The notes below the pieces were generated by a model that saw nothing but the letters and a program-made list of their open reading frames with translations, was not told the DNA's origin and did not search any database. A stretch of DNA of 64,000 bases from Eledone cirrhosa (lineage: Eukaryota), in contig OZ024740.1 of the NCBI GenBank assembly GCA_964016885.1, positions 135,036,001 to 135,100,000 on the forward strand. The letters are read 5' to 3'. Shown here piece after piece: positions 9,401-60,328 of this stretch. The number at the start of each line of letters is the position of its first letter. Positions within the stretch are counted from its first letter, which is position 1. A program made the position numbers and the translations under genes.

Positions 9401-10318
9401 GAGGTCCTCAGTGACGCCAATTAAGTACTGATTTGCTATGTGATGACTCACCCAGCCCATGCCATTCTGGAAGAGCAGATGTTAAATGATGATGTTGATG
9501 GTATATATATATATATATATACAAAATCATAATGTCGTGGGTTCAATTCCTGGACTGGGTTGTGTTGTGTTCTTGAGCAAAACACTTCATTTCACATTGC
9601 TCCAGTATACTCAGCATGAGCACCAGCAATAGCTTGGGGTTTAACCATACGTTGGACTGGCCTCCTGTCCAGAGATGTGTCTTGTACTCTCAGTCACTTC
9701 ATGTCACGGAAACTGGGATAAGCATGGCTTGGGACAGTTTTTGGACTCGACCAGTGAGTGAAATTGATGAAGCAGAAACTGTTTTGAAGCCTGTTGGATG
9801 AGGTATACTTTTAATTCAACAGGCCAGCATTGTCATATACTGTACCACGCTGAACCTCCCCAAGAATTACATTCTGGGTACATGTGTTTACAGAATAGTC
9901 AGCCACATGTTGATTTCATTAAGAACTGGGACACTCATTATCAAAACTGATAGAAGTCCATACCACCCCTTAGTATAGAAACATGAAGAGAAGATACTTA
10001 ATATACAAATCTAGTTAAATATAATAACAGCAGTAAGACGACTGAGACCTTAATAGTTGTTTACTGCAAGTTTCACATGACTGCTAATCCAAAACAACGT
10101 TTGGAGTAAACAATTGTGAAGGCCTCAGTCATACTATTTTACACACACACAAATGTTCATGCACATAGTCATCTATTAATATATGTGAATACATACACAC
10201 ACACACACACAAGTGTGTGCGTGTGTACATGTGTGTGCATATATATATATATATATATAAATTATTAAAAAAATAATGAATAAACAAAGAAACAGTTCCT
10301 TATGTTAAAAAAAATCTC

Positions 10319-10456
10319 ATTATTTTACGATCGTTTCTAGGATATATATGTGTTAGAGTTGGTATGCATATTCTATAGATCTATGTACAATATTTATACA
10401 AACTATCAGAGGGAATATACATACCTACACATATATATGCTGTCTTCAGAAATAAT
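10319..10456 (-). ncRNA. Type-I hammerhead motif, long-stem-II family A
   Basis: Minus strand: AUUAUUU-CUGAAGA-[105 nt rod]-GAAAC-GAUC-GUA-AAAUAAU. Confidence 0.78.
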
Positions 10457-10475
10457 ATATATATAGACAGGGATA

Positions 10476-10815
10476 GAGGCACATGGCTTAGTGGTTAGAG
10501 CATTGGGCTTGCAATCGAAAGGTTGTGAGTTCAATTCTCAGACCGGGTGATGTGTTGTTTCCTTGAGCAAGACACTTTATTTCACATTGCTCCAGTTTAC
10601 TCAACTGTAGAAATGAGGTGATAGGACTGAGTTCCCTATCATTCCACTGCAAAGTGGTCGTGGAGGTGCCACGGCAAAAAAGCACCCAGCACTCACTGTA
10701 AATGAGGTTGGTGTTAGGAAGGGCATCCAGCTGTAGAAATCAAGCCAGAAGCAGTTCCCGTCCCACCCTTGCAAGCAGGGAAAAGCAGACGTAAAATGAA
10801 ATGATGAACGATGAG
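10476..10815 (+). mobile_element. tRNA-derived CORE-like SINE with RTE-derived tail
   Basis: A box TGGCTTAGTGG, B box GAGTTCAATTC, core CCTTGAGCAAGACACTT..CAGTTTACTCA.CTGTAGAAATG, tail GGTGTTAGGAAGGGCATCCAGC shared with RTE. Confidence 0.88.
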
Positions 10816-17349: not shown

Positions 17350-18681
17350 ATCATCATCATCATTGCCGTTTTATGTCCATTCTTCCACACTAGCATGGGT
17401 TAGACGCGTTGTCCTGTTGTGGGCAATGCTAGGTCAGGTGACCATGCCTTGCTTATACAGAAATGATTTTGGCTTGATTTCTACAGCTGGATGCCCTTCC
17501 TAATGCCAACCTCGTTTACAGTGAGTACTGGGTGCGTTTTGTTGTGACACACACCTACACCACCACTTTATAGTGTGTACTGGGTGCTTTTTCTCGTGAC
17601 ACCTACGCGAGCACTTTATAGTGAGTACTGGGTCTTTTTGTTGTGACACCTACACGACCACTTTATAGTGAGTACTGGGTCTTTTTGTTGTGACACCTAC
17701 ACGACCACTTTACAGTGAGTACTGGTGCTTTTTGTTGTGAAACCTACACGACCACTTTACAGTGAGTACTGGTGCTTTTTGTTGTGACACCTACACGACC
17801 ACTTTACAGTGAGTACTGGTGCTTTTTGTTGTGACACCTACACGACCACTTTATAGTGTGGGCTGGGTGCTTTTCGTCGTGATACTTACACGACCACTTT
17901 ATAGTGAGTACTGGTGCTTTTTGTTGTGACACCTACACGACCACTTTATAGTGTGGGCTGGGTGCTTTTTGTTGTGACACCTACACAACCACTTTATAGT
18001 GTGGGCTGGGTGCTTTTCGTCGTGATACTTACACGACCACTTTACAGTGAGTACTGGTGCTTTTTGTTGTGACACCTACACGACCACTTTATAGTGTGGG
18101 CTGGGTGCTTTTCGTCGTGAAACCTACACGACCACTTTACAGTGAGTACTGGTGCTTTTTGTTGTGACACCTACACGACCACTTTATAGTGTGGGCTGGG
18201 TGCTTTTCATCGTGATACTTACACGATCACTATGCAGTGGGAGGGTGGGGCAGGGTATACTGTATATATGCTTCAGCTTTGGCCTGTGCCTCTGGGAAGT
18301 CGGATCTTCTGTATTACTGCATAACGCCAGAGATCTCGGCCTTTGAAAGGTGCAACTGGGCAAGGTCCGATTTTATCACCTCATCCCAAGTTTTCCTGTG
18401 TCTTCCCACTCCAAGGCTTCCAACGACTTTGAGCGCTCTGCAGCTTTTTAGGCAGCTGTCATCCTTCATACGCATCACATTTCCATACCAACGTAATCTC
18501 CTTTCTTGCACACAGTTCATTTATGATATGCTGTTCACGTATATTACTATTACACGTCCATTGGAGCATGCAAGCTTCATTTCTTTCCAGGCTATGCAAG
18601 TCTTCAGCTCACAGCACCCATGTTTCACTACCATGCAACATTGCTGTTTGTATGCACCCATCATACTGTCTGCCTTTCATT
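17350..18681 (-). mobile_element. RTE 3' fragment whose 3'UTR holds an expanded minisatellite
   Basis: RRLRWYGNVMRMKDDSC peptide at 18314-18520 and shared tail GGATGCCCTTCCTAA. Confidence 0.9.
17510..18240. repeat. Tandem repeat of ~42-45 bp (gtgacacctacacgaccactttatagtgagtactggtgctttttgtt), about 16 units
   Basis: Directly visible units, two alternating variants. Confidence 0.95.
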
Positions 18682-19296: not shown

Positions 19297-19900
19297 AATA
19301 AAAATGATGTAGACATTGCACTACAATACAATACAATACAATACAATAGGAGGGAACATAATAGTACCACTGATGATGTTGCAGATGTGCAATGAAAGAA
19401 CTTTGATAAACTATATATATATCATCATTTTTTTCATTTCATTTTACGTCCGCTTTTTCCCCGCTTGCAAGAGTGGGACGGGAACTGATTCTGGCTTGAT
19501 TTCTACAGCTGGATGCCTTTCCTAACACCAACCTCATTTACAGTGAGTGCTGGGTGCTTTTTTGCCGTGGCACCTCCACGACCACTTTGCAGTGGAATGA
19601 TAGGGACCTCAGTCCCTAACATCTCATTTCTACAGCTGAGTAAACTGGAGCAATGTGAAATAAAGTGTCTTGCTCAAGGAAACAACACATCACCCGGCCT
19701 GAGAATTGAACTCACAACCTTTCGATTGCAATAAATTAACTATGGAGATATAAAAGATATAGAAGCAAAAACCAACCAAACAGTGAATGTGTTCTGTTAT
19801 TATTTCTGGCAATATTATTACAACAATATGACCCTCCCCAAGTATAACAATATTTGTTTCGACACACGATTTCATATCAAAAACCTTGCAAAACAAATTC
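18682..19900 (+). mobile_element. Degenerate Neptune/Nematis-like PLE 3' end with short inverted 5' piece; SINE inserted at 19423-19729
   Basis: CKTRNVVYSIRCT..YIGETARS coding remnant at 18770-18870. 18682-18727 is inverted relative to 19730-19775. Confidence 0.82.
19365..19408 (+). ncRNA. Minimal hammerhead in PLE 3' end
   Basis: UACCA-CUGAUGAu-GUUGCA(gaug)UGCAAU-GAAAG-aa-CUU-UGAUA. Confidence 0.68.
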
Positions 19901-30011: not shown

Positions 30012-33000
30012 ATAATAATAAATTTGAAGACTAAAATCCAAAGAGGGCTCGATAAGGATAAATATATATCAAATATATAAGAACCGTAGAGCAAATATTT
30101 ATTAAAATAACAGATTAAAGTTTAAGCAAAGAATCGCTGCTTTCATCCTTAATGGGATCTTCTGAAACTAACAAAGTCAATCTGTAAACGCAGAACTGGA
30201 TATTTCAAAAAACGTTGCAACCAGAGGAAGACAGGAAGACGATACTTTGGTTCGTGGAAACGTTCGCTGGCTATGAACGGGAAAAAACGAATAATACGTC
30301 ATTAATAGGAGCGGTGAAAAACAATACGCGCAAAGACAGAACCACGTTTATAGTATAATAGAGGTCGTAGACTAATGTTCTCTTAGGTGGTGCATAGAGA
30401 CGTTCTCTGGCGATAAACGAAAAAAACGAAGATAATACGTCATATGTGGAGCGTGGAGAACAATAGCACGCAAAGACAAAACCACGTAAATGGTATAGCA
30501 GAAGTCGTAGACTAAATTCTAACTAGGAGACCGAATGAATTTCCGCTACGGAGTTAAGAACAAAGTAAATAAATACAATACAGAAGTAATAGAAATAAAT
30601 AAATACATACACGCAAACAGAAACGTACATACACGAGCATACGCAAAAACTTACCATAGGTAAACAAAACCATGCACATATAAATATGTGTGTGTGTGTG
30701 TAAGCGTGTATACAAATAAATAAATAATTATATAAACGTATATAAATAAATAAATACGTATATAACAAGCGCACACACATACCTACATGTAAATACACGA
30801 ATGTTCGGAGACGTAAGTCAACCAAAACATGAAGTACACATATACATAAGCCCTACATACGTACGAACCTGCATACTCACACAGACGCAAAACTCCCGTA
30901 TACACATAGTCGCACCATATGTACCAGAATATATAAAAAAATTATACGCCAGAACAATCAAATATACGTACGAGAAGGTATACGTACCTTCACAAAACAT
31001 ACGGATAATATATACTTACCTATGCAAATAAGTAAAGGTATAAACAAAACATACTTAGCTCCCACATCGAGACGTAAAATATCCACGTATAGATCGTACT
31101 ATCCATTAGGGTATAACGTGGGGCTGTAATACAAGTAAGTTTTGTGCAATTTATGTTTACCAGCCGAAATTGCCTCAGATTTTTTGTTTAAGATGTGGTC
31201 TGTGGCGTAGAGTATTTCCAGGGCCTCAGCGGCGCAGAGGTCACATGGTCTTTTATTTCCGTTATACGATCTAGCCCTCGCTAGGATCTCCCAGTGTAAC
31301 TTATATTGGGTGTGGTTGTCTTTTAGACTCCAGATATAAGCTGAAAGTGACGTCATATTCCTTCTTAGAGGGTAACGAAAAGAATGGGTATGCATGTAAA
31401 GACGCTGCTTGAATCTATTGGCGGTTAACCCTATGTAGGCCCTACGGGACGTGGATGTTACAACCTTACATTTGTAGACAATGTTACCAGAGAGGCATTT
31501 CCCGGATAGGGGGCAATCAACCCGATTCCTACAATTACAGTTAGTACTAACTACAGGGTTGCACGTGTTCCTTATGGCTAGGTAGTTTAGCTAAATTTGA
31601 AGCTGTGATGTTATGTGCAAGGTTAGGAGTCGTAGAGTAAGAAATTTTAATAGTATTTCTATTAAAAATTTTACTATGTTTATGTGTAGGGGGAAAATGC
31701 TTCGTAATAAGGGAAAGAAAGATCTTAGCTAATGGTGTGGCCACCTCCATATTATATGGTGGGTTATACCAACAAATGCAACAGGATCTATTTCTTCTAG
31801 GTCTATTTTCGTACTCTGTATATGCTACCTTATCGACAAATCCACTTCGAGCAAGAGCTTCATTGTAATAAGTGGAATGGTCGTTGAAAATACGCTCGTT
31901 GGTGGAAAGACGGGAAAGCTAATGACGTATTATATTCGTTTTTTCCCGTTCTTAGCCAGCGAACGTTTCCACGAACCAAAGTATCGTCTTCCTGTCTTCC
32001 TCCGGTTGCAACGTTTTTTGAAATATCCAGTTTTGCGTTTACAGATTGACTTTGTTAGTTTCAGAAGATCCCGTTAAGGGTGAAAGCAGCGATTCTTTGC
32101 TTAAACTTTAATCTGTTATTTCAATAAATATTTGCTCTACGGTTCTTATATATTTGATATATATTTATCCTTATCGAGCCCTCTTTGGATTTTAGTCTTC
32201 AAATTTATTATTATTACTATTTGGCTCCCTCGATTGAGCACTCTACTGACTTATATTCATCATGCAGAAACAACATCTGAATATTTCTACAAAGAACATA
32301 CCCGTACCAAGCAGGAAAACATACCTAAAACTCCTGATACAGAAAATAGATGCGTTCATTAAAAGGTTGCGTTGGCGGGCCTTTTACTTCGATAATCCGC
32401 GAAAAGCAGACAACAAACAGGATAAATTTGGATTTAAAACCTATAATAACCCCCCTGTGTAACCCAGCATTGCTACCCTTCGAAAATGATGTCTTGGAAC
32501 TCATTCGGAGTATCAAATTTCGGAATAGGAGCAATTCCTTCCAGCTCGACCTGAAGAATAGAATTCGTTCTATTAAGGATTCTAATGCCGTGCACGTCCA
32601 TTCCGACAAAACTGGCAACCTATATCAAGTGGAGCACAGTACTTACCATCAACTACTACATAATGCTGTAACTAAGGATTACCGTAAAACTAATCGGTGC
32701 GTCATCAATGAAATCAACGATGCTGGGTTTAAAATCACATCTGATCTCAACATCCTGGACCGGACCGAACCTCTGGACCCTATTTCTCCCCACTTTACCC
32801 TGAAGGATCACAAATCCAATTTTCCGAACAACCCCTCTATTTGGCTTATTAACCCTACAAAGTCCGATTTAGGTAGACTTAGTAAGACGATTCTTGATAG
32901 AATTATACCTGAAATTAGAAGTTTGGCCCCTCTTGCACTGTGGAACAATTCCTTTGCGGTGATTGATTGCCGTTTTATCCAATTCGACATCAGCAATTAC

Positions 33001-35367
33001 TACTCCTCCATCACTTTACCACTTCTCCTTAGAGCTATCAATTTCGCTAAAACACTCACAGTGGTTAAGGATTTCGAAGTTGATGTCATCCTCAATGCCC
33101 GTAAGTCGGTGATTAATTTTGACGACTCTATTTGGATTAAAAAATCCAATAGTACCCCATTCGACGTGAGTATGGGCGCCAGTGATTCTGCGGAGGTTAC
33201 TGATCTTATCGGCCTTTTCCTTCTTTTCTCTATCAAGGACGAATTCCCCAACGCGGGCGGTGGTTTGTACCGTGACGATGGTCTTTTGACCATGACTAAG
33301 TGCGGACCTCGTGCTTGCGATAGGTTCAGAAAAGAACTCACAGCCTTCTTTAAAGGCTTCAACCTCTCTATACAGGTTGAGGCCAATCTCTCGGTCGTTA
33401 ATTACCTCGACGTTACCCTTAACCTATTGAATGGGTTGTATTACCCGTATAGAAAGCCGAATGATATGCTTAATTACATAAGTAAGCATTCCAACCATCC
33501 TGCCAGCATAACCAAGAACCTGGTAAGAAACGTTTCGTTGAGGCTTTCCCGTCTTTCCACCAACGACCGTATTTTCAACGACCATTCCACTTATTACAAT
33601 GAAGCTCTTGCTCGAAGTGGATTTGTCGATAAGGTAGCATATACAGAGTATGAAAATAGACCTAGAAGAAACAGATCCCGTCGCATTTGTTGGTATAACC
33701 CACCATATAATATGGAGGTGGCCACACCATTAGCTAAGATCTTTCTTTCCCTTATTACGAAGCATTTTCCCCCTACACATAAATATAGTAAAATTTTTAA
33801 TAGAAATACTATTAAAATTTCTTACTCTACGACTCCTAACCTTGCACATAACATCACAGCTTCAAATTTAGCTAAACTACCTAGCCGTAGGAACACGTGC
33901 AACCCTGTAGTTAGTACTAACTGTAATTGTAGGAATTGGGTTGGTTGCCCACTATCCGGTAAATGCCTCTCTAGTAACATTGTCTACAAATGTAAGGTTG
34001 TAACACCCACGTCCTGTAGGGCCTACATAGGGTTAACCGCCAATAGATTCAAGCAGCGTCTTTACATGCATACCCATTCTTTTCGTTACCCTCTAAGAAG
34101 GAATATGACGTCACTTTCAGCTTATATCTGGAGTCTAAAAGACAACCACACCTAATATAAGTTACCCTGGGAGATCCTAGCGAGGGCTAGATCGTATAAC
34201 GGAAATAAAAGACCATGTGACCTCTGCGCCGCTGAGGCCCTGGAAATACTCTACGCCACAGACCACATCTTAAACAAAAAATCTGAGGCAATTTCGGCTT
34301 GTAAACATAAATTGCACAAAACTTTCGTGTATTACAGCCCCACGTTATACCCTAACGGATAGTACGATCTATACGTGGATATTTTACGTCTCGATGTGGG
34401 AGCTAATTATATGTTTTGTTTATACCTTTACTTATTTGCATAGGTAAGTATATATTATCTGTATGTTTTGTGAAGGTACGTATACTTTCTCGTACGTATA
34501 TTTGATTGTTATGGCGTATAATTTTTTTATATATTCTGGTACATATGGTTCGACTATGTGTATACGGGAGTTTTGCGTCTGTGTGAGTATGCAGGTTCGT
34601 ACGTATGTAGGGCTTATGTATATGTGTACTTCATGTTTTGGTTGACTTACATCTCCGAACATTCGTGTATTTACATGTAGGTATGTGTGTGCGCTTGTTA
34701 TATACGTATTTATTTATTTATATACGTTTATATAATTATTTATTTATTTGTATACATGCTTACACACACACACATATTTATATGTGCGTGGTTTTGTTTA
34801 CCTATGGTAAGTTTTTGCGTATGCTTGTGTATGTACGTTTCTGTTTGCGTGTATGTATTTATTTATTTCTATTACTTCTGTATTTTATTTATTTACTTCG
34901 TTCTTAACTCCGTAGCGGAGATTCATTCGGTCTCCTAGTTAGAATTTAGTCTACGACTTCTGCTATACCATTTACGTGGTTTTGTCTTTGCGTGCTTTTG
35001 TTCTCCACGCTCCACATATGACGTATTATCTTCGTTTTTTTCGTTCATCGCCAGAGAACGTCTCTATGCACCACCTAAGAGAACATTAGTCTACGACCTC
35101 TATTATACTATAAACGTGGTTCTGTCTTTGCGCGTATTGTTTTTCACCGCTCCTATTAATGACGTATTATATTCGTTTTTTCCCGTTCTTAGTCAGCGAA
35201 CGTTTCCACGAACCAAAGTATCGTCTTCCTGTCTTCCTCTGGTTGCAACGTTTTTTGAAATATCCAGTTCTGCGTTTACAGATTGACTTTGTTAGTTTCA
35301 GAAGATCCAGTTAAGGGTGAAAGCAGCGATTCTTTGCTTAAACTTTAATCTGTTATTTTAATAAATA
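30008..35367 (+). mobile_element. Naiad-like Penelope-like element: inverted 3' copy (30008-31919, - strand), partial pLTR, RT/GIY-YIG ORF (32262-34362, one frameshift and one TAA), spacer, pLTR
   Basis: STKNIPVPS..RLRWRAFYF N-terminus, DKTGNLY, FDISNYYSSI, YRDDGL, NYLDVTLNL, CNCRN..CPLSGKC linker, IVYKC..YIGLT..FKQR..H GIY-YIG. Flanked by (TA)n on both sides. Confidence 0.93.
32057..32107 (+). ncRNA. Variant hammerhead (CAGAAGA core) in Naiad-like pLTR; copies at 35294-35344 (+) and 30119-30169 (-)
   Basis: AGUUU-CAGAAGA-uCCC(guuaa)GGGu-GAA-AGCA(9 nt)UGCU-U-AAACU. Confidence 0.65.
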
Positions 35368-35392
35368 TATATATATATATATATATATTATA

Positions 35393-35545
35393 TTTGATAA
35401 TTTGTATAATTTTGTATAATTTTGTACATAGATCTGTTGAATATGCATACCAATTCTAACACATATATGTCCTAGAAACGATCGTTAAATAATGAACTTT
35501 TTTTGTTTAATATAAGGAACTGTTTCATTGTTTTATTCATTATTT
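35393..35545 (+). mobile_element. 3' half of the family-A hammerhead repeat (no CUGA half)
   Basis: Matches 57570-57663 and, inverted, 10275-10410; contains GAAACGATCGTTAAATAATG. Confidence 0.8.
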
Positions 35546-36010
<465 letters not shown>

Positions 36011-52671: not shown

Positions 52672-52715
<44 letters not shown>

Positions 52716-52724
52716 CACATATAT

Positions 52725-52763
<39 letters not shown>

Positions 52764-54639
52764 GATAAATCTACCAAGAGTTTACGGTAGTGTCCAATCC
52801 GTATGAAGAACTCAATGTAATCCGGATATCATGGAAAGAAGAGATGCAATGAAAAATCACTTTCGGTGAAAGATAAACGGAATACAGAGTCAAGATAATA
52901 TTGCTAAAAAATTTTTTTATATCCTAGAGAAAAACTTCCCGCCAAACCACAAATACCATCAAATCTTAAATAGGTCTACAGTTAAATTCTCATACTCAAC
53001 AACAAATAACATGAAACAAAATATAAGTGCCTATAATGCATATAAATGTAAGAAAACCATAAGTATACCACCAATACATCAAACTAACCATAATATCTCC
53101 TCAAATACAGAATTAACGAAAGGTTGTAACTGTAGAAACAAAGCAAACTGCCCATTAAAAGGAAATTGTCTTGTTAACAACATAGTTTATAAATGTAATG
53201 TTAAAACTAAAGATTCTATTTGCTCATATATAGGAGCTACTTCTAACAATTTTAAGACAAGGTTTAATACCCACAAACATAGTTTTAAAAATGCCGCACT
53301 AGCTAATACAACATCTCTAGCAGAAAAAATCAATAGTTATAAAAATAAGAATATAGAATATGATTTGACCTGGAGTGTGCTCAAAAGAGCCACCCCTTAT
53401 CAAAATAATAGAAATGAATGTAGATTATGTTCCCAAGAACTATTTGAAATAATGAAATCTAAGGATATCCTATTAAATAAACGACAGGAATTAATTATAT
53501 CGTGTAATCATAAACTAAAAAAAACATTTAAATATTATAAACCTAATTAATAACATTATTTTAGAAATTAATATATAATTTAATTTAAATGTTAGTTAAC
53601 CTATAAATTTAATTTAATTAAAATTCTACTACAGTTGAGAATATAAAATATTGTGTAATCATAAATTGTGAAAAACCTTTAAATATTACTAATATATACT
53701 TAGTAATTTAATTTATAGATTAATTTTAATTTATTTAACCCTTTATTAAAATTCCTTTACAGATAAAATATAACAAAATATCGTGTATTCAATGACAGAG
53801 AAATAATTTTTAGTATTATAGACCTAATTAATATACATTTTAGAAATATATTTATAATTTGGTTTTAAATTTGGTCAACCTAAAAATTTAATTTAATTGG
53901 CTTAAAATTAGTATCCTAATACAGACGGATTGCAGAGTGTCATGTAATCATAGAATGGGATGGGTTTTGGATGTATACCTAGTTAATATATTCTTTGCAA
54001 TTTTTGAAAAAATATGTATATGTATGTATATATGTGTATGTGTATGTATGTATATATATGTGTATATATATATGTATGTATATGTATATGTGTATGTATT
54101 AATTTTAATTTCTGTTTACATATAATTATATTCTACTATTGATAAAATACAATATCTGTTTTATTTATTATATACCTAATTAACATATACTATAGAAATT
54201 AATATATAATTTTTAATTTAGTTAACCTATAATTTATATTCTACTACCGATGTAATACTTTATTTGTTTTTTTCCCTATTACTAAATTCATTTCCTAATA
54301 TTGATACCATAACGTTAATAATTTTAATTTAGTTATACTATAATTAATACTCTACTACTATTTAACTTCAAAATTCTGCTTCAAATATTATAAACCTAAG
54401 TAATTTACACCTTAGAAATCAATATATTAACTATCTTTAGTTTAGTTAACCTATAATTAATGGTATACTTATATTGAAATGCATAATTTTGCCTTCTTTC
54501 TTGCATTTCCTAATACTGAAACTATGTAAACACATATTGAGATCCAAATACAGATTAATATTCTATGTTTCTTGAAACATATATTTACTATAATCCCCCC
54601 CCCCCCCCCTTTCCCCCCTACTATTATTATTTGTATTTG

Positions 54640-54757
54640 TAAGCGTGTATGTATGTATGTATATGTAGGTAGGTGTATATATGTTTGGGTGTTTATTTGT
54701 AAGTATAAAAATACATATATGCGCATGCAAATAAGGGTGTATGATTGTGTGTATATA

Positions 54758-54828
<71 letters not shown>

Positions 54829-55142
54829 ATGTGTGTGTATACGTGTATGTATATATATGTATGTGTGTATGTATGTATGTGTGTGTATATATGTGTATGT
54901 ATATGTATGTCTCTCTATATATATGTGTATCTTTGTATCTATGTGAGTATATATGTGTGTATGTACATGTATGCACATGTATATGTCTATGTGTGTATGT
55001 GTATATGTGTACGTATGTGCGCATATATATGTGAGTGTGTGTGTGTGTATATATATGTATGTCTATATATATATATATATATATATTATTTATTATTATA
55101 ATATAATATATGTATATATATATATATGTGAAAATATGTATA

Positions 55143-55175
<33 letters not shown>

Positions 55176-55441
55176 TGTATATTTGTAGTTGATGTGTGTA
55201 TATGTATGTATATATATGTGTGTGTGTATGTATGTGTGTATATATATGTATGTGTGTGTGTGTATGTGTGTGTGTGTATATATATATATACATATATGTA
55301 TATGTATGTGTGTGCATATTTGTCTGACTGTGTGTATTAATTTTTTTTTGTTTTTTTTTTTTGTTTATATATATGTATGTGTATGTATGTATGTATGTAT
55401 GTGTGTGCATGTCTATATATGTGTATGTGTATGTATGTATA

Positions 55442-55490
<49 letters not shown>

Positions 55491-55571
55491 CTTTGTGTGT
55501 GTGTATATATATGTATGTATGTGTGTATGTATGTGTTTGTATGTGTGTTTATGGTTGTACGTGTGTGTGGG

Positions 55572-55604
<33 letters not shown>

Positions 55605-56065
55605 GTGTATATGTATCTCTATTTATATGTGTATATATGTATATGTATATACCTTTTTCTTTGTATGTCTGAGTTGTGTGAGCGTGTAGTGGTGTTTGTA
55701 TGTATATACGCATATATGGATGTGTATGTATTTGTATATATGCGTATATGTAAGTGCGTATGTGTGTGTGAGTATATATCTATGTCTATGTATGAGTATG
55801 TATGTGTGTGTATGTATGTGTGTGTGTATGTATGTATGTGTGTATGTGTGTATGTATATGTGTGTATATATATGTATGTATATGTATGTATGTATGTATA
55901 TGTGTATGTATATGTATATATATGTATATATATATATATATATATTTATTATATGTGTGTGTGTGTGTGTGTATATATATCTTTATATATGTGTATGTGT
56001 ATGTATGTGTAGGTGTGTGTGTGTGAGTATATATGTATGTGTGTATATGTGTATGTATGTGTATG

Positions 56066-56116
<51 letters not shown>

Positions 56117-56261
56117 ATGTGTATGTGTGTATGTGTGTGTATATATATATATATATATATTTATGTATATATATATATTTATATGTGGGTATGTATGTGT
56201 ATGTGTGTATATATATGAGTGTATTTTTATATATATATATGTATGTAGGTGTGACTGTATA

Positions 56262-56302
<41 letters not shown>

Positions 56303-56364
56303 ATGTATATGTGTGTATATGTATGAGTGTGTATATATATACGAGTGTTGTGAGTGTGTATATA

Positions 56365-56425
<61 letters not shown>

Positions 56426-56920
56426 ATATATGTATATATATGTATGCGTGTATGTGTATATGTGTGTAAAAAAAAAATATATATATATATATATGTGTTT
56501 ATGTGTGTATGTGTCTATGTATTTATATGTGTATATGTATGTGTCTCTATATGTATGCGTCTATGTATGTGTATGTGTATTTATATGGTATGTGTATGTA
56601 TATGTATGTGTATGTATGTGTTTATATATATGTGTATGTATATGTATGTATATGTATGTGTGTGTATGCTTGTGTATTTATTTATATGTCTATATGTATG
56701 TATATCGATGTATACTTTTTATTTTACTTGTTTGTATATATATATGTGTGTGTATGTATATGTGTGTATATATATATATATGTGTGAGTATATATGTGTG
56801 TGTATATATGTGTATATGTATGTGTATATATATATGTATGTGTGTATATATGTGTATATATATATGTATATGTATATATATGTGTGTGTGTGTGTGGATG
56901 TATATATATATATATATATT
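54640..56920. repeat. Long (TA/TG)n compound microsatellite
   Basis: Directly visible. Confidence 0.98.
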
Positions 56921-57520
56921 TTCTTGATATATTTCTTTTTTCTTTTTCTTTTCTTTTTATTTCTAAGTTTATAGATACATCTATAAATAGGCAGTCTGCC
57001 GAAACCGTTGAATACTGACCTCTCCCCCCCTCCCACCTAATTTCTGTATCCTGATCTAAATATGTGTGGCAGTGTTTATGTGCGTGCATTAATGTCCATA
57101 TGCTTATGATAATACTATATGCACATATATATGTGTGTGGGGGTGTGTGTGTGTATGTATGTTCGTAGTTATGTGTATGTTTATGCATATACGCGCGTGT
57201 GTGTGTGAGTGTACGAATAGGTGTGAGTATATGAATGTGTGTATACATTTATTTCATATTTATGTGTCTATACGCATTTTATCTGTGGATTATAGACTTA
57301 CAGAGACATTAGCCTTGAATTTTTGTATTTGCATACATCTTTTTGGCATGCGTATGCATGTGAACATATATCTTTATGTAAATATGTGTACGAAGTTAAT
57401 TACATGTATATACACACACCAAACTGCATAAAATTTTTTGTATTTTCATTGGTCAATTTGAACTCTGTTCCCAAACGGACCTGAAATTTTGAATTGTTGT
57501 TATTATCAATAAATATATTT

Positions 57521-57663
57521 CATTATTTCTGAAGACGGCATATATATGTGTTGGGTATGTATATTTAATTTTGATAGTTTGTATAATTTTGTATAATTTT
57601 GTACATAGATCTGTTGAATATGCATGCCAATTCTAACACATATATATCCTAGAAACGATCGTT
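57521..57663 (+). ncRNA. Hammerhead family A; 3' strand of stem I replaced by (TA)n
   Basis: CAUUAUUU-CUGAAGA-[116 nt]-GAAACGAUCGUU then TA repeat. Confidence 0.68.
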
Positions 57664-58807: not shown

Positions 58808-59139
58808 TTCATTTCATTTCACGTCCGCTTTTCCCTGCTTGCAAGGGTGGGACGGGAACTGATTCTGGCTTGATTTCTACAGCTGGATGCCCTTCCTAAC
58901 ACCAACCTCATTTACAGTGAGTGCTGGGTGCTTTTTTTCTATGGCGCCTACACAACCACTTTGCAGTGGTATGATATGGATCCCAGTCCCTAGCATCTCA
59001 TTTCTACAGCTGAGTAAACTGGAGCAATGTGAAATAAAATGTCTTGATCAAGGAAATAACACATCACCTGGTCTGAGAATTGAACTCACAACCTTTCGAT
59101 TGCAAGGCCAATTCTCTAACCACTAAGCCATGTGCCTCC
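58808..59139 (-). mobile_element. Same CORE-like SINE, full length
   Basis: Reverse complement of the 10476 copy. Confidence 0.88.
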
Positions 59140-59350
59140 AATATATATATATATATATATACTTGGGGAGGGTCATATTTGTGTAATAATATTGCCAGAA
59201 TTAATAACAGAACACACTGACTGTTTGGTTAGTTTTCGCTTCTGTGTCTTTTATATCGGTTAATTTAATTTCTTTATACGGTAATTCGATATACAGTAAG
59301 GGTTTCAGGAACGCATATATACCGTATATCGAGGACTCACTGTATATATA

Positions 59351-59383
<33 letters not shown>

Positions 59384-59673
59384 TTTTTGCCCGAGAAAAT
59401 ATCTGTGTGTGTCATCAAATGTTGTACACACATAGATATTTTTTCAATTTCCAATTGAGTTCTTAGCACGTGGCCTGAATCCCTTTCAGAGTTCATTGTC
59501 ACGCGCATGTATTATTTTTTTGACGGTAATTCACTTCCTCATTTTTTGAATCAGTTCGAGCACTTCTTTCAGAACTGCTGGACTGGCTACCTGACAGATA
59601 CCTCAGACACAGAAAGTGATTATCGCTAAATGCTGATGTTGGTTAGATTATCAATATTAGTGTTATTGGGGCA

Positions 59674-59800
59674 CCCACTGATGAATTATAGGAGCCCACT
59701 TGAATATATATCTATTGATGGTATACAAGCTCCTACATAAGTTGGTATAATTTCACCCAAATTGTAGGAGTCCTATAATGAAACGAGACGTCCGTCTGGG
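59674..59800 (+). ncRNA. Type-I hammerhead with canonical core and GUC site; branched 95-nt stem II
   Basis: CCCA-CUGAUGA-AUUAUAGGA...UCCUAUAAU-GAAACG-agacguc-CGUC-UGGG. Confidence 0.85.
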
Positions 59801-60039
59801 AAGAGATATATTAGATGTATCTCATATGAAATAATACAGCCAATTTTCCACGCAATACTTTTAGTTAGCACCCCAAACTCTTAATTTGGAATATAATCAC
59901 TTATTTCCTAATGTTTGTTGAGGGAGTTGGAATTTGGCCGGAGTATCGCTATAAAGCTTTCTCCGATATTGTATTTATATATATATATATGTATATAAAT
60001 TAATAAAAGCAAAGAACAGGTTCCTTATATTAAAAAAAT

Positions 60040-60183
60040 CATCATTTTACGATCGTTTCTGGGATATATATATGTGTATGTTAGTATGTATATCATATTA
60101 AAGATCTATGCAAAAAAAAGATTACAAATTATCAGAAGAGATATACATACCTTCACTTATATATGCCATCTTCAGAAATGATG
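60040..60183 (-). ncRNA. Type-I hammerhead motif, long-stem-II family A (covariant copy)
   Basis: CAUCAUUU-CUGAAGA-UGG..[109 nt]..CCA-GAAAC-GAUC-GUA-AAAUGAUG. Confidence 0.82.
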
Positions 60184-60328
60184 AAGTATGTTTATTGAAA
60201 GAAAGCATTACTACAAAAAGTTTGTTTGGGAACAGGTTTTAAATTGACAAATAGAAAGTTAGAGGTCAAGTTGATAGAATAACTATAGGAGAAATTTTAT
60301 GCTAGGAGTGGAGGAATATATATATGTA

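Follow-up and report, generated by a model that had tools for sequence, protein, structure and literature searches.

Hammerheads of Penelope-like elements

Hammerhead ribozymes of Hydra-clade and further Penelope-like elements (PLEs), their action as dimers, the U3-A8 core variant and a tail defined by two start sites are all already in print, and the role of PLE hammerheads is treated as an open question (PMC8557442, PMC11167929). The Hydra clade is defined by an RWK-like motif, DKT, a CxCx5C linker, CxxC plus CxH near the protein end and a (TA)n target, and by having neither CX2-5CxxC nor CCHH (PMC8557442). In that study Craig et al. searched for hammerheads with spacers of 7–17 nt and noted 35–50 nt at most; by our own count in its table, published Hydra motifs have a stem II of 12–26 nt and the longest PLE entry reaches ~54 nt, compared with 99–116 nt in the elements analysed here. 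In the Hydra clade, the range of natural hammerhead stem II lengths is thereby extended four- to five-fold.

The architecture is an outlier, while the motif itself is real, selected and ordinary in kind. As in the Hydra PLEs (PMC8557442), it is a type I hammerhead on the sense strand near the 3′ end, in an element with (TA)n targets and the same protein diagnostics, and it has a short, mostly palindromic stem III and a frequent mismatch at the base of stem II. With minimal PLE hammerheads (PMC4209133) it shares the pLTR position, a dimer-type design and the U3-A8 variant, known there from Schistosoma PLEs; in that work a helix II of 7–8 bp is called larger than usual, whereas 30–44 pairs are predicted here, and the conserved distal motif in stem II sets the present family apart. 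PAc of the lizard Anolis (PMC11167929) belongs to the Poseidon clade and carries a small hammerhead overlapping its start codon, whereas here the ORF begins 360 nt after the cut. The PAc hammerhead cuts only with the element's protein and is dispensable for insertion (PMC11167929). Non-LTR retrozymes (PMC7229834; bioRxiv 10.64898/2026.07.22.740005) are, like many of the copies below, short non-coding hammerhead-bearing derivatives of PLE pLTRs; they differ in forming head-to-tail tandem repeats with a unit running from cut to cut, whereas those of this genome occur singly or head-to-head, with starts at −3 to −8.

In the literature searched, which included few subscription papers, the text available describes no PLE hammerhead with a ~100-nt stem II, a competitor strand or a 5′-end hotspot at −7. 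Long variants could be contained in the alignments of Lunse et al. 2017, and the supplements of Cervera and de la Pena 2014 could likewise contain them.

Hammerhead copies in the window

The window, the whole 64-kb stretch of DNA that was analysed, contains a focal hammerhead copy at 60040–60183 (−), reading stem I, CUGAAGA, 109 nt, GAAAC-GAUC-GUA and stem I again. This is a type I hammerhead in the pLTR of a Hydra-clade PLE: it lies in the 5′-truncated 3′ end of a subfamily-A element that ends in (TA)n (59996–60323, −), of which 60002–60323 is 92% identical to the 3′ end of an endonuclease (EN)-bearing copy. The copy is decayed, and a short deletion removes its downstream competitor strand. 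Hammerhead position numbering is used throughout. The 5′ strand of stem I (60176–60184, −) forms 9 bp with the 3′ strand (60039–60047, −), and is followed by the core C3–A9 (CUGAAGA; 60169–60175, −). The 109-nt rod-like stem II (60060–60168, −) opens with a U-A pair, two G-C pairs and a C-C mismatch and continues as two variable helices. A distal motif (60103–60134, −), made of GAU/AUC, a 4x3 internal loop and UGUA/UACA, carries one change in the focal copy. The GAAA core, the 8-nt palindromic stem III and H17 occupy 60048–60059 (−), and the cut is predicted at 60048/60047 on the minus strand. Cleavage after GUA, as the sequence-only reading had it, suits the focal copy; the triplet is GUU in the youngest subfamily.

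That reading had listed four dispersed copies, all of which were located at their positions, and had overlooked a fifth. A short copy at 10257–10456 (−; motif 10319–10456) has a 105-nt stem II, ends in (TA)n and starts exactly 7 nt before the core, the hotspot position discussed below. The copy given as a half at 35393–35494 belongs to a subfamily-B copy at about 35378–35559 (+) that is truncated within the rod and lacks the 5′ core. The hammerhead at 57521–57663 (+), with its core at 57529 and a 116-nt stem II, closes the 3′ 4.8 kb of a young subfamily-B element (52883–57663, +), which ends at the predicted cut. Here the end of the ORF (52882–53547, 96% to the intact protein P0001) is followed by a 4.2-kb microsatellite-rich 3′ UTR, and an inverted arm of the same insertion, composed of the tail region, lies at 52680–52912 (−). 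The fifth hammerhead (59669–59805, +; motif 59678–59796) is of subfamily G, with a branched 95-nt stem II and a 4-bp stem I. Its copy (59669–59990, +) stands tail-to-tail with the focal one, and it has a changed stem III that exceeds the family palindrome in length.

The 105–116 nt between the cores of the three whole copies listed earlier do pair as a rod, with z-scores against shuffles of −3.3, −3.7 and −5.4, each copy folding better than all 200 shuffles; the half copy gives −0.3. In a scan of the window with Rfam covariance models, no hammerhead family appeared among 114 matches at E≤1, and the same window contains four long-stem motifs with both core halves plus the half copy. The suspicion that length-limited searches would miss the motif is thus borne out by Rfam as well as by the 7–17-nt spacers of Craig et al. 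As the long-stem class escapes both Rfam and published descriptors, PLE families scored as hammerhead-free may need re-checking with open spacers.

The element and its protein

Flanks of the best motif matches in the genome are alike upstream, where fragments of reverse transcriptase (RT) and nuclease are found. At one complete locus (L080) the order is motif, 5′ UTR, an 813-aa ORF, the 4.2-kb microsatellite-rich 3′ UTR, motif, tail and (TA)n. The proposed link to PLEs is upheld by this intact ORF flanked by the motif, a single frame joining a telomerase-like RT to a C-terminal GIY-YIG nuclease as in EN+ PLEs. The predicted fold of the protein (pLDDT 82.6) has telomerase RTs (TERT) as its top Foldseek matches, and the nuclease was identified by motif only. 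Pfam gave no relevant match for P0001 and one weak RVT_1 match among seven fragments, and a sequence search of the PDB returned nothing useful. The arrangement is also that of EN+ PLEs, with pLTRs, tandem and inverted 5′-truncated arms and an optional tail.

Among Hydra diagnostics, the protein has RWR at 37, DKT at 115, CxCx5C at 673, CxxC at 771 and CxH at 799, and lacks CX2-5CxxC. By these motifs and its (TA)n insertion target the element can be assigned to the Hydra clade; Naiad, Neptune and Nematis were ruled out by domain order and motifs. The subfamily-B element, at ~7 kb with its 4.2-kb 3′ UTR, exceeds Hydra elements, which are generally <3 kb (PMC8557442). About 3 kb of (TA/TG)n microsatellite is integral to its 3′ UTR (window 53550–57500; L080:4320–8450), and this 3′ UTR is copied with the element, at 94% identity over 4,972 columns, so that the element spreads its own target sequence. 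An older, second Hydra-type ORF remnant in an inverted arrangement lies at window 31120–34341 (45–49% to P0001), and no hammerhead was found adjoining it.

Genome-wide abundance

The 3.0-Gb genome was searched for the two cores at fixed spacer ranges, with the reversed pattern as a control. The pattern CTGANGA-N95-125-GAAACGATCGTH gave 12,590 exact matches against 13 for its reverse, so the motif is present far beyond chance. Other spacers gave 501 matches at 55–94 nt, 162 at 6–54 nt and 184 at 126–170 nt (controls 13, 11 and 9); the last class was rejected as a set of longer stems, being mostly duplicated cores. Stems II of 99–116 nt fall into six subfamilies (A–F). The same stem III is found in the genome with stems II of 20, ~40, 63, 85–95 and 99–116 nt, the long ones are either rods or branched, and a 10-nt repeat in the subfamily-B loop varies in copy number.

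Subfamily B is young, with 29 of its 40 best copies identical over 173 nt; 6,876 copies have a common 33-mer across the cut and 345 carry the 5′ UTR. Subfamily A, that of the focal copy, is older, and 39 other scored matches are 92–96% identical to that copy. The young family offers insertion ends by the thousand, stems of graded natural length and compensatory mutants that arose naturally, and cleavage, switching and template choice are therefore directly testable.

Selection on the fold

Selection on the fold is well supported. In 15 natural representatives, 98.4% of 314 cells are paired and 4 of 21 pairs have changed on both sides, as against 25–46% paired in slid controls; the covariation score was reached by 0 of 500 shuffles, which is not a probability because the aligned rows are related. 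The type I arrangement is present, with CUGANGA and GAAA cores in order, a NUH triplet, three helices around the core and the open end in stem I. Covariation across genomic copies, the check that the sequence-only reading had proposed, is found in stem I and the base of stem II. Stem I shows three double swaps in all: pair 5 differs between A (C-G), B (U-A) and C (U-G), and in subfamily F pairs 3 and 4 read C-G and G-C. The first of these is the U-A to C-G swap noticed earlier, which proves to be a fixed subfamily difference genome-wide (C-G in 21/22, U-A in 51/53 and U-G in 9/16 copies); within the window it rests on only one other whole copy, because that at 57521 ends at the predicted cut and lacks the 3′ side of stem I.

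The strongest sign of selection is the core of subfamily F, which has a 107-nt rod. Among the first 100 of its 271 matches, U3 occurs in 99 and A8 in 99, with C3 or G8 in none, so that the tertiary pair C3-G8 of subfamilies A–E is replaced by U-A. The swap is known from active hammerheads, where it keeps the core tertiary pair (PMC3088659), and it occurs in Schistosoma PLEs (PMC4209133). Conservation of the core in A–E follows from the construction of the search patterns and is not counted as evidence, and stem III is invariant for the same reason.

The rod tells a similar story. Its arms are 41–54% identical between lineages, and the predicted duplex is −19.7 to −27.9 kcal/mol with its own partner versus −9.8 to −16.4 across lineages. 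In a column test B and F pair 7/7 with themselves and D, represented by four decayed copies, 4/7; in B, nine shared variants fall at paired rod positions, and two of them disrupt the pairing. Nine of ten stems II have z below −2, and in 15 of 19 representatives the sense strand gives a better fold than the antisense. At position 4 of stem II, the commonest state in all six subfamilies is a C-C mismatch; equally common in all six is the distal 4x3 internal-loop motif, whose near invariance means that it could be an RNA site or a DNA-level site. Together, covariation over six subfamilies and the U3-A8 swap sustain the earlier suggestion that the giant stem II variant is selected. A-to-I editing of the rod was considered and dismissed, rare A>G and T>C changes numbering 6 and 8 in B; only C had an excess, 16 against 11.

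The base of stem II departs from the usual form. A G10.1-C11.1 pair is usual in hammerheads, though not obligatory, and here the position holds U-A in A and a C-A mismatch in B–F. U-U mismatches occur in Hydra (PMC8557442) and in other natural hammerheads (PMC3088659).

Origin of the long stem II

A metagenome scan with a single protein as query found no relative, and the relatives used here, 77 in number, come from the best 80 of 413 metagenome matches kept in an alignment-based scan. Of these metagenome-contig relatives, 60 have the motif with 10–25 nt between the cores, 16 are without it and one has a 68-nt match that is unstructured inside the ORF. This last and three long matches in metagenome loci were rejected as spurious, having a short motif inside or lying unstructured within the ORF. 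In a tree of endonucleases from this genome and the metagenomes only, those of subfamilies A–D and F group together (86/86, a fork that is not strongly supported) and are separated from the metagenome relatives (99/97, with midpoint rooting), while differing among themselves by up to ~40%. Given this grouping and the short stems II of the relatives, elongation is likely to be derived in this host lineage.

Probable cleavage, dimer design and a predicted off-switch

The motif is probably a working ribozyme whose activity is conditional, cutting being predicted only for dimers or in the presence of the element's protein. Its stem III is an 8-nt palindrome with a predicted probability of at most 0.25 in the monomer and a predicted duplex energy of −10 kcal/mol; it would be unable to form alone and would pair between two motifs, a dimer design described for PLE hammerheads (PMC4209133, PMC6765202). 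In 9 of 11 representatives of A, B, C, E and F, the predicted probability of stem I falls from 0.65–1.0 to 0–0.07 once the RNA extends to +75; the 3′ strand of stem I is then predicted to be taken over by a competitor strand lying at about +38 to +58. A helix of at least 8 bp from +1 is predicted for 134/136 copies in B, 27/39 in C, 15/26 in A and 16/22 in F, and for 28%, 23%, 19% and 4% of the respective shuffles. Among metagenome relatives, 4 of 53 have the competitor helix. In one F copy (L526) and one B copy (L228) the competitor does not prevail; it is weak in D, and most I, G, J and K representatives lack it. The strand is conserved, without covariation.

By folding onto the 3′ strand of stem I, the downstream strand would keep the motif off in the finished transcript. 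With stem III needing two motifs and the competitor holding the motif off, cleavage would be restricted, and might trim or monomerise tandem transcripts only part of the time. More tentatively, the long arm may have grown stepwise in this lineage, tolerated by the core, with the distal motif serving as a binding site. Confidence is lower for the off-switch, and for what the arm does, than for the working ribozyme. Activity may also be low, given the C-A opening of stem II in five of six subfamilies and no evident loop–loop contact.

Genomic traces of cutting are faint. Nearly all copies retain an uncut site. Of 28 loci whose ends fall within 30 nt, counted by hand among the first 100 of 122 matches, 8 terminate at the cut (nominal P=0.003, ignoring TA microhomology); in B, 114 of ~7,000 copies have their start in the 6 nt preceding the cut, many via ambiguous microhomology; 3 of 14 truncated ORF-bearing copies lie within −10 to +13 of it (P=0.056); and one of two whole 5′ ends examined starts 2 nt after it. 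A pile-up of copies at the cut was set aside as a cleavage trace, being weak or ambiguous.

Several other accounts of the motif can be weighed against a working ribozyme. That chance core words surround an AT-rich inverted repeat is extremely improbable: the region is AT-rich and partly (AT)n-like, hence self-complementary, but the match counts of 12,590 versus 13, the U3-A8 swap and the pairing statistics already refute the idea, and both the covariation and the hammerhead at the same place in 60/77 relatives oppose it. It is possible, if rather doubtful, that only the ribozyme is selected and the long arm is nearly neutral, stem II tolerating any paired insertion; growth would then come from slippage and template switching in an AT-rich element, with pairing kept to spare the core. 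Stems of 20 to 116 nt coexisting with one stem III, long forms of different shape and a variable repeat number in the B loop would all fit, but the length stays at 99–116 nt while the arm sequence turns over, and the C-C mismatch and distal motif remain commonest in all six subfamilies, whose endonucleases diverge by up to ~40%. We think it unlikely that the fold is kept as a structural signal, for protein binding, template definition or 5′-end protection, with cleavage negligible in vivo. The uncut sites, the predicted off-switch and the non-canonical 10.1-11.1 pair are compatible with such a signal, as is the lizard PLE, which inserts with dead ribozyme mutants and gave no RNA reads ending at the cut (PMC11167929). 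The U3-A8 double change, on the other hand, preserves a pair important in the active core, H17 takes A, U or C, as the search pattern demanded, and position 7 is free to vary; these points favour a ribozyme that cuts.

A 5′-end hotspot at stem I

Among the first 100 B copies found with a 3′ anchor, 36 begin 3–8 nt before the core, 15 of them at −7, the A of UC-AUU, and 13 begin inside the rod. The −7-type end recurs in subfamilies C, E, F and G; one contig under a second organism label has it too, as a loose end. ORF-side copies behave differently: of 70 sampled from the 345, 57 reach the hotspot and none begins there (short versus ORF-bearing copies, Fisher P=4e-10, tandem copies not being independent). 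The available text on PAc (PMC11167929) describes no such hotspot at stem I. Neither the hotspot nor the competitor strand figured in the sequence-only reading. The hotspot is likely to be an RNA 5′ end, as repeated short re-priming at its junctions agrees with a physical end of the RNA. Our best guess for it is a transcription start, because Penelope has a pLTR-internal promoter near its hammerhead (PMC2377424, PMC4209133). Many RNAs starting at the first base of stem I might then give rise to thousands of hammerhead-only insertions of 220–350 nt, though this step is the weaker one. A plain start at −7 predicts some ORF-bearing copies beginning there, and with 0/57 a further assumption is needed, such as multimeric, cleaved or circular templates. 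A cap-derived G at −8 was looked for and rejected, G being present in 6 of 23 B junctions, mostly by templated re-priming, and in 0 of 15 in C.

Exonuclease trimming back to the folded ribozyme, or an RT stop caused by fold-back of the new DNA, could produce the hotspot with no transcription start; we are inclined to doubt this, without dismissing it. The 0/57 ORF-bearing copies stopping there, the location of the end at the border of stem I (in B, C, E, F and G) and the missing cap G would all be expected. Yet a C-A step precedes the end in each family, the end being 3 bp within a 10-bp stem in B and just outside a 4–5-bp stem in G, a local fold-back should affect ORF-bearing copies too, and a pLTR-internal promoter is known in Penelope (PMC2377424). 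A more elaborate version of the transcription start, to which we give a small probability, would make the hammerhead a 5′-terminal module. Transcription would start at the first base of stem I, with the giant arm as internal promoter or protein-binding site; a lone motif would be held off and copied into hammerhead-only mini-elements, and two motifs on an ORF-bearing transcript would pair via stem III and be cut to unit-length or circular templates. If true, this would explain why ORF-bearing copies never begin at −7 and would make the ribozyme a counter sorting short from full-length templates. The insertion ends bear on the open mechanistic question of what PLE hammerheads do.

Six −7 junctions in subfamily C (L117, L219–L222 and L231) have a common upstream end joined at −7, which we take to be a SINE-like 3′ end, and were left out of the count of independent truncations; these copies probably form a chimeric sub-lineage. 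The SINE-like end resembles family M, with a 20-nt stem II, in a common 10-mer plus GAAAC.

Insertion 3′ ends, the tail and neighbouring repeats

Of 99 insertion ends after the cut, 52 lie at +73, 43 at +210 and 4 run on, and all 18 close head-to-head pairs have one arm of each end type. The +73 and +210 positions are thus reverse-transcription ends downstream of the cut, and the template is therefore normally read through uncut. This resembles PAc, in which two internal RT starts define the tail, both strands are primed and uncut RNA is the main template (PMC11167929). The 137-nt tail between the two RT start sites (L080:1516–1730 for +73 to +210) has predicted stem-loops and is four times the 30–40 nt usual in Hydra elements (PMC8557442). 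A few arms end near +294–300 instead.

Head-to-tail arrays of three ORF-bearing units with a 6–7-kb period occur at C1:126.84–126.86, 183.74–183.76 and 420.38–420.40 Mb and at C2:170.43 Mb, and are candidates for active source loci. Within the window, a family of dispersed repeats headed by a tRNA-like segment (31 bits to Rfam tRNA at 10484–10541) is present at 10415–10807, 35614–35998, 58809–59156 and 19434–19731, adjoining hammerhead copies twice. A tandem array at 17460–18191 has a unit of ~47 nt that is related to a dispersed repeat.
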